The notes: generated by a model from the letters alone, not told the origin. DNA of 5,982 bases from a virus (IMGVR_UViG_2734482004_000009), one strand, 5' to 3'; positions 3,763 to 5,927 are shown, numbered from the stretch's first letter. Made by a program: numbers and translations.

Positions 3763-4116
3763 TTATCGTCGCCGGTTAACTGCGGGTGGTTGACCACGGT
3801 TGAGCCAGAGATAACAGCTGCCCCCGTCATCCGGAGAAACACGATCCACCCAGAATATCTCACCATTAATGGTCAGCGTGTCACCACGCCGCACGGCACG
3901 AACCGTATCCGTCCGCACAAATAATGACGGGCTGCTTCCTTCAATACGGACCCCGCCACCGGCAAACCCCAGCGACTCCGGATCATCAAAAACCCCCTGA
4001 ACTTCGCTGCCACACTGTGCCCCCGAGGTGAACTGCGCACAGAGCCCCATCACTTCAACGATCGTACTGTCTACCCCGGCGAGGGCAGCATCAAAGGCAT
4101 TCTGAAAATCACGCAT
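3763..4116 (-). CDS. FII: Head-tail joining protein gpFII
   Basis: 117-aa ORF, MRDFQNAFDAALAGV...GVFDDPESLGFAGGGVRIEGSSPSLFVRTDTVRAVRRGDTLTINGEIFWVDRVSPDDGGSCYLWLNRGQPPAVNRRR, matching lambda gpFII (same length). The start overlaps the 3' end of FI by 8 nt. Confidence 0.93.
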   Translation of the reverse strand: MRDFQNAFDAALAGVDSTIVEVMGLCAQFTSGAQCGSEVQGVFDDPESLGFAGGGVRIEGSSPSLFVRTDTVRAVRRGDTLTINGEIFWVDRVSPDDGGSCYLWLNRGQPPAVNRRR

Positions 4117-4492
4117 ATTCAGCCGTTCCGTGCTGTATCATGGCCGTTGCCAGTGATGATGGCACCAGAACACGCATACCCCGTAACGCCAGCTCAACGG
4201 GACGACCTGTCTCCGGGCAATACCCCATTACTTGCAGGCACTTCCGTACCCGGACGGCTTTAACATCATCCGGAGCATCCGTGTTGTTCAACTGCTCACC
4301 ATCGTCTGTGTGATTTTGATCAGCCCCGCTCTCATCAGAGTGCATAATGCCCTCCGGGGAAACAGCAAGCTCCTCTTCCCACTCAGACACACGTTGAGCA
4401 ATATCCGCAGCACTCCCCGACATATCCGCCTCGCGCCCCAGCAGGTCAGCCAGTTGACGAAGACGATTCAGATTTTCTTCTTTTGTTGCCAT
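4109..4492 (-). CDS. FI: DNA packaging / head maturation protein gpFI
   Basis: ORF with an acidic, gpFI-like sequence (MATKEENLNRLRQLADLLGRE...). Preferred start is the ATG at 4490-4492, preceded by AGGAGG (plus 4498-4503, 5-nt spacer). The longer ORF-track start at 4540 is a GTG with no ribosome-binding site, and the extension would be encoded by the intergenic hairpin. Confidence 0.85.
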   Translation of the reverse strand: MATKEENLNRLRQLADLLGREADMSGSAADIAQRVSEWEEELAVSPEGIMHSDESGADQNHTDDGEQLNNTDAPDDVKAVRVRKCLQVMGYCPETGRPVELALRGMRVLVPSSLATAMIQHGTAEYA

Positions 4493-4504
4493 CTCAGCCT
4501 CCTG

Positions 4505-4535
4505 TGAAAAAAGACACGGGGGCATTTCGCCCCCG
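4505..4535 (-). terminator. Candidate intrinsic terminator or RNA-stabilising hairpin between E and FI
   Basis: Minus-strand RNA reads CGGGGGC-GAAAU-GCCCCCG: a 7-bp all-GC stem (plus 4517-4523 pairing with 4529-4535) and a 5-nt loop, followed by UGUCUUUUUUCA (plus 4505-4516). It sits 9 nt after the E stop and just upstream of the FI ribosome-binding site. Confidence 0.5.
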
Positions 4536-4543
4536 CTCACGGA

Positions 4544-5562
4544 TTATTTCACCTGTACCACCACAAACTCATCCGGATCCGGCAGCACCATCAGCGGAGC
4601 GGACTGCGTCATGGTGAATTCACAGGACGGATCGCCCACGGTCAGCCAGTGTTTCGGGTAACGGGAAGAAGCCACCACTCCTTCAGACAACGCCTGTGCA
4701 TCCTTAATGGCACCATAGCAACGAATCCCCTCTGCCGCCGTATTCCCCAACACCAGCATGCCCTCCGGCAGATAACGTTTTTCGGTACCGTCCTCTGCCA
4801 CATAAGACGTTTTCGCCACCACAATGGCCAGATCGCCGTAATACCCCTTGAAGGACACCACTGCGCCCAGATCTTTCACTGCCGTTTCGAGTTGTGAATT
4901 TGAGCCGCGACGGGTATCCAGTTTTTCGCGGAACAGCTTAAAGCCATTCAGCAGACGCCAGACCGTACCGTCCATAATGGCGATATTCACAAGGCCGCTG
5001 GCCTGATCGCAGTAGAGGTCAATATCATGCGTCGGATCAAACGTATCACGGTCCTGCTCAGACCATTTTTTACCGTCAGCCTGCTCAATGTTATTTCCTT
5101 CAGAGCGCCCGAAATCCACCTCGACAGTATCAAACTGATCCCCTTCCATGGTGTATTTGCCATACAGCACGGCATTCACCGCCTGCATTTCTTCCACCTG
5201 GACAATGGCGTGCTCTTCCTGTTTGAGGTTATCGGTAATGATACGCAGACGACGGTAGGCCGGGTCGTTCAGCTGAGCCGGATCTTCACCAGGAAGGCGC
5301 TCAACCGCCTGCTGGTAATTAAATTCGTGTTTCGGCTTGACGTAGCCCGGACGTAACACGCGGGTTTCACCACCGCGATGGCGAAGCACTTTTCCTTCAA
5401 CGATCGGGGAGACATAGGCCGCCACCGGCGTTTTTCCGGTAATTTTGTCCAGCATCACCTCTTCGGTGTGGAAATTCACCGTACGGCGGAAAAACAGCTC
5501 CAGAAACAGCGCACGGAATTTCACTTTTTGTTCGGTATAACCNNNNNNNNNNAGGCCACCAT
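4544..5562 (-). CDS. E: Major capsid protein gpE; 5' end unresolved because of the N-run at 5543-5552
   Basis: Continuous frame from the gap to the TAA at 4544-4546 encodes ...GYTEQKVKFRALFLELFF...PGYVKPKHE...DPAYRRLRI...VQVEEMQAVNAVLYGKYTM...KLDTRRGSNSQLETAVKDLG...EFTMTQSAPLMVLPDPDEFVVVQVK, recognisably lambda gpE-like. The ORF-track start at 5524 is an internal GTG. The true start lies in or just beyond the gap; an ATG sits at 5560-5562 inside the palindrome but is out of frame if the gap is exactly 10 nt. The upper boundary is therefore approximate. Confidence 0.9.
5543..5552. other. Run of 10 N at the 5' end of E
   Basis: Literal Ns. Confidence 0.99.
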
Positions 5563-5570
5563 GGTGGCCT
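5553..5570. repeat. 18-bp perfect palindrome AGGCCACCATGGTGGCCT in the D-E intergenic region, abutting the N-run
   Basis: The sequence equals its own reverse complement. It lies 9 nt after the D stop and contains CCATGG and TGGCCA. Confidence 0.7.
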
Positions 5571-5579
5571 GATAACGTG

Positions 5580-5927
5580 TTACGGCAGAGCCGCGTGACT
5601 CAGGGCTGTGCCGGCAAAGGCATTTGCCTTTTTGTGTTCATCCACACTGTCAGGCCAGCGGATTGCCTCCGTCGCAAAGGTCCCCGACTTGTAATAGGTC
5701 AGCACCGTCTCTGTGCCTTCAAGCGGCAGTACCAGTATGCCAACCGCACTACCGGCTTTCTGTCCATCCCAGACCACCAGTTTCCCGGTGGCTTCATCCA
5801 GCATCAGGGGCGTCAGAGCCGGTGTTGCAGAAGAAATCCCGCTGCTGCCTGTGGCGGTATGAGCCGGATCATTACCGGCAAAAATACGTACTTCCGCACG
5901 CTGTTCAGTGATGGTTTTCGTCACCAT
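5580..5927 (-). CDS. D: Head decoration protein gpD
   Basis: 115-aa ORF containing ...NDPAHTAT...TPLMLDEATGKLVVWDG...AVGILVLP...YYKSGTF...AFAGTA..., the conserved blocks of lambda gpD. ATG at 5925-5927 with GAGG about 13 nt upstream, 4 nt after the upstream stop. Confidence 0.9.
   Translation of the reverse strand: MVTKTITEQRAEVRIFAGNDPAHTATGSSGISSATPALTPLMLDEATGKLVVWDGQKAGSAVGILVLPLEGTETVLTYYKSGTFATEAIRWPDSVDEHKKANAFAGTALSHAALP

Follow-up and report, generated by a model that had tools for sequence, protein, structure and literature searches.

A terminator-like hairpin without a U-tract between the decoration and capsid genes of phage-21-type lambdoid prophages

Junction hairpins in lambda-type head modules and the head-gene locus in the window

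In lambda and several other phages, the spacer between the head decoration gene and the major capsid gene holds a hairpin. The lambda spacer reads AAAGGCCGCCTGTGCGGCTTTTTTT, and a hairpin made up of an A-tract, a GC stem and a T-run is found between the two genes in lambda, 2H10, N15, phi80 and Vibrio phage K279. In the N15 record (NC_001901), the stem_loop at this junction is annotated as 'putative rho-indep. transcription terminator', and a second one is annotated past the capsid gene. This GenBank annotation is the sole explicit prior statement that was found on the junction hairpin. Literature searches on the D/E (shp/7) junction of lambda or phage 21 gave no paper that discusses a hairpin or terminator there, and a hairpin annotation is absent from both phage 21 records.

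The structure is common in the wider set. Among 37 non-redundant junctions from other species (one genome per species), the canonical A-tract/stem/T-run hairpin is present in 23, with hosts including Serratia, Buttiauxella, Erwinia, Kluyvera, Citrobacter, Enterobacter, Klebsiella, Pluralibacter, Trabulsiella odontotermitis, Aeromonadaceae, Pseudomonas, Motiliproteus and Amphritea. Four more junctions have a hairpin without a good T-run, namely the phage-21-type contigs L091 and L092, Trabulsiella guamensis and Halopseudomonas. The hairpin is absent in the remaining 10, where the spacer is short or missing altogether.

Some records met in these searches are odd in themselves. Contigs that are 100% identical to phage lambda across D/E (L100-L114, L147, L157, L105 and others) come from assemblies labelled Neobacillus, Kitasatospora, Paenibacillus, Shewanella, Pseudomonas, Leeuwenhoekiella, Methyloglobulus, Enterococcus, Bradyrhizobium and others, many of them with a coverage of ~1x. 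These are almost certainly lambda control-DNA contamination of those assemblies. In addition, the 254 kb record of Aeromonas phage AP1 (MT713136.1) holds an unannotated stretch of 214 nt (250183-250396) that is 95% identical to the E. coli prophage capsid gene studied here, which may be contamination or a chimeric assembly.

The DNA studied here, called the window, is a stretch of 5982 nucleotides of the viral contig IMGVR_UViG_2734482004_000009. By megablast, the region is the cluster of head genes found in phage-21-type lambdoid prophages, and all called bases that align to E. coli GN06489 (NZ_CP147608.1) are identical to it; only the first two bases of the window remain unaligned. The genes lie on the minus strand, so the sense direction runs from high to low window coordinates (Table 1). 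Downstream of the capsid gene follow FI, the head-tail joining gene, genes for tail proteins, G/T and the tape-measure gene. As annotated in phage N15, the capsid gene is bracketed by two hairpins: a palindrome in the 57-nt spacer between shp and the capsid gene, on the sense strand, and a canonical terminator-like hairpin past the capsid stop.

Two further observations concern the edges of this locus. An AGGAGG ribosome-binding site and the FI ATG at 4491 come after the second hairpin; because FI starts at that ATG, the listed 143-aa GTG ORF at 4540..4109 over-extends the FI gene. In phage 21 (M81255, L003), 'Tri box' repeat regions are annotated at 1-178 inside the scaffold gene, upstream of shp, and their counterpart in the window lies at or past its right edge.

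Table 1. Position of the features around the decoration/capsid junction in the window.
Feature	Position	Strand	Basis
Head decoration gene (phage 21 shp, lambda D homologue), 115 aa, stop at 5582-5580	5580..5927	-	ORF and annotated relatives
9-nt spacer from the decoration-gene stop to the 18-bp core	5571..5579	-	Invariant in 80 related copies
Visible 20 nt of the 22-bp perfect palindrome TCAGGCCACCATGGTGGCCTGA (sense)	5553..5572	-	Reference alignment, fold
Assembly gap, 10 Ns standing for 60 real bases	5543..5552	.	Alignment to complete genomes
Major capsid gene (phage 21 gene 7, lambda E homologue), codons 11-342 and stop	4544..5542	-	ORF and annotated relatives
Terminator-like hairpin GCGGGGGCGAAATGCCCCCGT followed by GTCTTTTTTC, between the capsid stop and the FI gene	4506..4536	-	Sequence; canonical form

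The palindrome in finished genomes and the assembly gap beside it

Both direct reading of the sequence and an inverted-repeat scan identify AGGCCACCATGGTGGCCT as a perfect 18-bp palindrome at 5553-5570, directly adjoining the run of ten Ns, and no other perfect palindrome in the window is as long. The earlier note had described a perfect inverted repeat 9 nt past the D stop and bordering the Ns, and the sequence reading, the palindrome scan and the ORF coordinates all agree with this description. In complete sequences the true length is 22 bp (positions 711-732 in L001): the last two bases of the 3' arm (GA in sense) have been swallowed by the N-run. The base of the full stem stands 7 nt from the shp stop. 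When the window was simulated under a first-order Markov model, a perfect palindrome of at least 18 bp arose in 51 of 2000 simulations (2.6%), and one of at least 22 bp in 2 of 2000 (0.1%).

Among complete E. coli records, 450 contain the 72-nt junction without a single difference, and 1596 of 5426 complete E. coli genomes, roughly 30%, carry a member of the junction family. In the alignment to complete genomes the palindrome is intact, with 60 bases where the Ns stand. Phage 21 itself (M81255) carries AGGCCACCGCGGTGGCCT at this place, likewise a perfect palindrome, in which a central GC replaces AT. With high confidence, the palindrome truly belongs to the head-gene operon of phage-21-type E. 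coli prophages.

This leaves virtually no probability for an artefact, i.e. a palindrome that is absent from the genome and arose where contigs were joined through a fold-back or chimeric read, as the earlier note had proposed for one of its two readings. The palindrome does adjoin an N-run, and there are three N-runs in the window; however, the identical sequence is present in 450 finished E. coli records, dozens of IMG/VR contigs carry the palindrome, and its perfect CGCG form already stands in the phage 21 record of the 1990s. What holds of the suspicion is the part that concerns the adjoining N-run, which is a real assembly defect hiding 60 bases; the palindrome itself is refuted as an artefact by the finished records and the phage 21 relatives.

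The size of this gap explains the apparent trouble with the capsid gene. A 683-nt junction query corresponds to 733 nt in complete genomes, at 100% identity. The 60 hidden bases read GACTGATTTCTGAATGAAAGGAACTGATTTATGGGATTGTTTACGACCCGCCAGTTACTC in sense and contain the final two bases of the palindrome and, for the capsid gene, an AGGA ribosome-binding site, the true ATG and codons 1-10 (MGLFTTRQLL). The annotations of E. coli, phage 21 (M81255) and OL657228 all place the AGGA and the ATG of the capsid gene within this stretch, with the ribosome-binding site 16 nt and the ATG 28 nt downstream of the stem. Read from the complete sequences, the capsid gene starts normally, and the ATG of the palindrome is irrelevant to its start. 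The concern that E is out of frame and lacks a start codon arose because the gap had been mis-sized (10 Ns for 60 bases), and it becomes moot once the AGGA and the in-frame ATG are restored. For annotation, this means that the capsid start only seems to be missing or out of frame, owing to a scaffold gap of the wrong size and not to the phage. Gene callers truncate the capsid gene here, giving a GTG-start ORF of 326 aa in place of the true protein of 342 aa.

The core of the palindrome also matches the Kozak/NcoI motif. This had been flagged as perhaps a coincidence, and a coincidence it is, as phage 21 has CCGCGG there. An engineered origin of the motif, such as a linker or vector, was considered and rejected, the sequence being native to hundreds of wild E. 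coli genomes and the centre being naturally AT or GC.

The window is a gapped scaffold with three N-runs in all. The run at 646-673 has 28 Ns for 131 real bases inside the tape-measure gene, and in that at 2533-2542, within the gene for the major tail protein, the 10 Ns match the true length of 10 bases (TTTCTGGCCT). No palindrome borders either run, and genes called across them will be wrong.

With six gap edges in 5982 bases, an edge would fall within ~2 bases of a 22-nt element by chance in ~1% of cases, according to our own estimate. An independent IMG/VR draft contig, L064 (IMGVR_UViG_2703718870_000001), starts exactly at the first base of the palindrome (L064:1-22), which suggests that assemblies break at the palindrome repeatedly. 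Sequence-specific Illumina errors and assembly gaps are known to arise from inverted repeats and GGC motifs (PMC3141275). Genomes that carry the junction have a median of 2 copies. The gap at the palindrome may therefore reflect a disturbance of short reads by inverted repeats with GGC motifs, or else a junction that is multi-copy and polymorphic within the genome, at which the assembly graph would break.

Folding of the junction RNA and comparison with intrinsic terminators

In the late mRNA, the palindrome is predicted to form a hairpin with a 9-bp stem, including 6 GC pairs, and a 4-nt loop. The hairpin alone has a calculated free energy of -16.4 kcal/mol, and the minimum free energy of the whole intergenic region, in which the hairpin is dominant, is -18.4 kcal/mol. 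Partition-function folding gives pair probabilities of 0.94-1.0 for the hairpin. The other reading of the earlier note, a real hairpin at the D/E junction, is thus borne out by the finished genomes, by pair probabilities of ~1.0 and by a counterpart in lambda-type head operons. A scan of the junction against Rfam 15 at a permissive E-value returned chance-level matches only, namely isrG (10.4 bits, with a gathering threshold of 100) and SpR20 (14.2 bits, with a gathering threshold of 45).

The same folds bear on translation. That the palindrome acts by translational control, either carrying the capsid start or occluding the capsid ribosome-binding site, is very improbable. Its ATG is the only one visible near the expected start in the gapped window, and it could be taken for the capsid start; however, the gap, downstream of the stem, hides the real ribosome-binding site and ATG, the palindrome's ATG opens just ATG GTG GCC TGA in the full sequence, reaching a stop after three codons, and 39 of 82 related copies have GC for the central AT, so that this ATG reads GCG. 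Occlusion fares no better. The end of the stem is 16 nt from the Shine-Dalgarno sequence, whose predicted accessibility is 0.12-0.34 with the hairpin and 0.22-0.41 when the hairpin is removed in silico. As removal hardly alters these values, the earlier suggestion that the hairpin modulates E translation is unsupported.

To compare the hairpin with its counterparts, 18 spacers were aligned with MAFFT, which is blind to structure, and then analysed with RNAalifold. In the MAFFT alignment the phage-21 hairpin falls in the same columns as the lambda-type terminators. RNAalifold returned 8 pairs, of which 7 show double-sided (compensatory) changes. In this alignment 91% of the cells are paired, against 77% in shuffles and 37-63% in controls in which the partner was slid, and none of 500 shuffles reached the observed covariation score. 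At the sequence level, position and alignment show the phage-21 hairpin to be a homologue of the terminator-like hairpin at the lambda, N15 and phi80 junction. A junction hairpin kept with covariation across the lambda-type head modules of many Gammaproteobacteria is a modestly useful by-product of this work.

Homology to a terminator-like hairpin does not make the phage-21 form a terminator. The tail after its stem reads CUGAUUUCUG and has no contiguous U-run. When T-tracts were scored with a d'Aubenton-Carafa-type weighting that we implemented ourselves, the phage-21 type reached 1.1; lambda and N15 lie at 4.7-4.95, and the range widens to 4.3-4.95 when Serratia and Vibrio are included. Since the phage-21 version lacks a U-tract, it is expected to be a poor terminator, and on these sequence features it probably is one. 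Separately, a bidirectional terminator was considered and rejected, as the opposite strand also has no T-run past the stem (TAACGTGTTACGG).

Lambdoid late transcription is carried out by a Q-modified, terminator-resistant polymerase. Because this polymerase resists terminators, the canonical junction hairpins too would be read through in lytic growth. It is in this setting that the hairpin might still work as an intrinsic terminator or attenuator, stopping or pausing RNA polymerase that is not Q-modified and so keeping the capsid and tail genes of the prophage silent, while the Q-modified polymerase reads through in lytic growth. The phage-21-type hairpin is flagged by a simple, lenient terminator scan (9 pairs, 6 GC, 5 T in the 8 bases past the stem), its homologues at the same junction are canonical terminator-like hairpins, and its N15 counterpart is annotated as a putative terminator. 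Against this stand the missing contiguous U-run, the low T-tract score and a far better terminator-like hairpin directly past the capsid gene, which together make a working terminator unlikely.

Variation, possible role and relation to known hairpins

Variation was followed in 82 related copies taken from IMG/VR and the references. The 22-mer is a perfect palindrome with an ATGG centre in 26 copies and with a CGCG centre in 19; the other haplotypes are G14T (19 copies), G14T with a loop change (1 copy), G17A (10 copies), T15C (6 copies) and a deletion of the element (1 copy). G14T (20 copies), G17A and T15C each break a pair, and none of them is compensated in any of the copies. All variants still fold, with stabilities between -17.4 and -9.2 kcal/mol. 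Of the 18 positions in the stem, three vary, all of them in the 3' arm, whereas the 5' arm and the 7-nt spacer are invariant in 80 copies. For comparison, 17-23% of third codon positions in the flanking genes are polymorphic, and the 28 nt with the ribosome-binding site (2 of 28 polymorphic) are more conserved than the stem. L092, a more distant relative, has a still weaker stem.

The one deletion is natural: ~110 nt before the capsid ATG, 49 nt between direct repeats of CCTGA are missing from L066. This copy has lost the shp stop together with the whole hairpin, and the new C-terminus of shp reads ...ALTDF. A separate observation concerns L002 (CP025907.1, 'Escherichia phage 204576'), in which a 1-nt deletion (CTG-CG vs CTGCCG) 4 nt before the shp stop would shift the shp frame through the hairpin; this is either a sequencing error, the record being unannotated, or a real frameshift.

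Overall, this pattern suggests weak constraint on any role of the hairpin in the phage-21 lineage. The hairpin is always retained where the region exists, but the perfection of its stem shows no visible selection.

Another possibility might be that the dyad acts at the DNA level, as an operator for a dimeric protein, a cruciform or a restriction-related element. The symmetry is perfect through the centre in both major haplotypes (ATGG and CGCG), as such a site would have it. However, asymmetric variants are common (36 of 82 copies), a central double change keeps the symmetry ~1/3 of the time by chance (3 of 9 possible changes, by our own count), no protein partner is known, and the covarying homology to RNA terminator hairpins is a simpler account of the dyad. 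A DNA-level site is accordingly a highly improbable explanation.

The main rival is a neutral relic, in which the ancestral D/E terminator has decayed, lost its U-tract and become functionless in phage-21-type phages. Uncompensated stem mismatches at appreciable frequency, a density of stem polymorphism about that of third codon positions, the weaker stem in L092, the natural deletion in L066 and the T-tract score of 1.1 are all consistent with decay. On the other hand, all variants fold (-9 to -17 kcal/mol), no change is seen in the 5' arm of 80 copies, distant hosts keep a covarying hairpin at the same place, and a perfect 22-bp palindrome would arise by chance in just 0.1% of simulations. 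On balance, a relic is the less probable account.

The reading preferred here, at a probability of roughly 72%, is that the palindrome is a genuine operon hairpin, homologous to the junction terminator but without its U-tract, that the gap beside it hides a normal capsid start, and that its role, if it has any, is at the RNA level. Late transcription would read through the hairpin, which would be a weak terminator even for an unmodified polymerase. The most plausible role, if any, would be that of a stem which, once the RNA has been cleaved, stops 3'-to-5' exonucleases and thereby shields the message upstream. Terminator-type hairpins at the 3' end have been found to raise the abundance of upstream mRNA (PMC11696848). 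The hairpin could also insulate the capsid ribosome-binding site from upstream structure. We put a stability role and a relic at roughly even odds.

A bolder version holds that in the phage-21 lineage the ancestral D/E terminator became an element with a perfect dyad, no U-tract and a job of its own, as a processing/stability element or as a DNA-level binding site, with the palindrome being a recurrent, sequence-specific breaker of short-read assemblies as well. We consider this quite unlikely. If a processing/stability element were true, decay of the head-gene and capsid messages would be uncoupled, and the ratio of decoration to capsid protein could be tuned in this way. In its plainest description, the feature is an ordinary, already-sequenced intercistronic terminator-like hairpin, notable only for the loss of its U-tract; it has little biological import, and its importance is mainly for annotation.

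Three known kinds of hairpin can be set beside it. Stabilising 3' stem-loops of polycistronic mRNAs, which act as exonuclease barriers and include intercistronic REP hairpins, are likewise stable, without a U-tract and placed between highly expressed genes, so that a similar mode of action is plausible for the phage-21-type hairpin; its sequence, however, is unrelated to REP elements and matches no Rfam family. Canonical intrinsic (Rho-independent) terminators resemble it as GC-rich hairpins a few bases past a stop in an intergenic spacer. The phage-21-type hairpin differs in lacking the defining U-tract, while a canonical example lies one gene downstream (4536..4506).

The closest match is the junction hairpin of lambda, N15 and phi80. 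It holds the same position between orthologous genes, in a spacer of 55-67 nt against 57 nt here, and shares an alignable GC-rich core (AGGCC.CC...GG.GGCC), a tetraloop and a stem of 8-9 bp, with compensatory changes between the lineages. The differences lie at the two ends of the stem and in its symmetry: the innermost pair is G-C in lambda and A-U in the phage-21 type, the AAA/UUU flanks (A- and U-tract) of lambda, N15 and phi80 are replaced by UCA/UGA in the phage-21 type, and the phage-21 form is a perfect 22-bp palindrome. With its stem kept and its U-tract lost, the phage-21 lineage offers a natural test case to tell a terminator role of intercistronic hairpins of this kind from a role in RNA stability.
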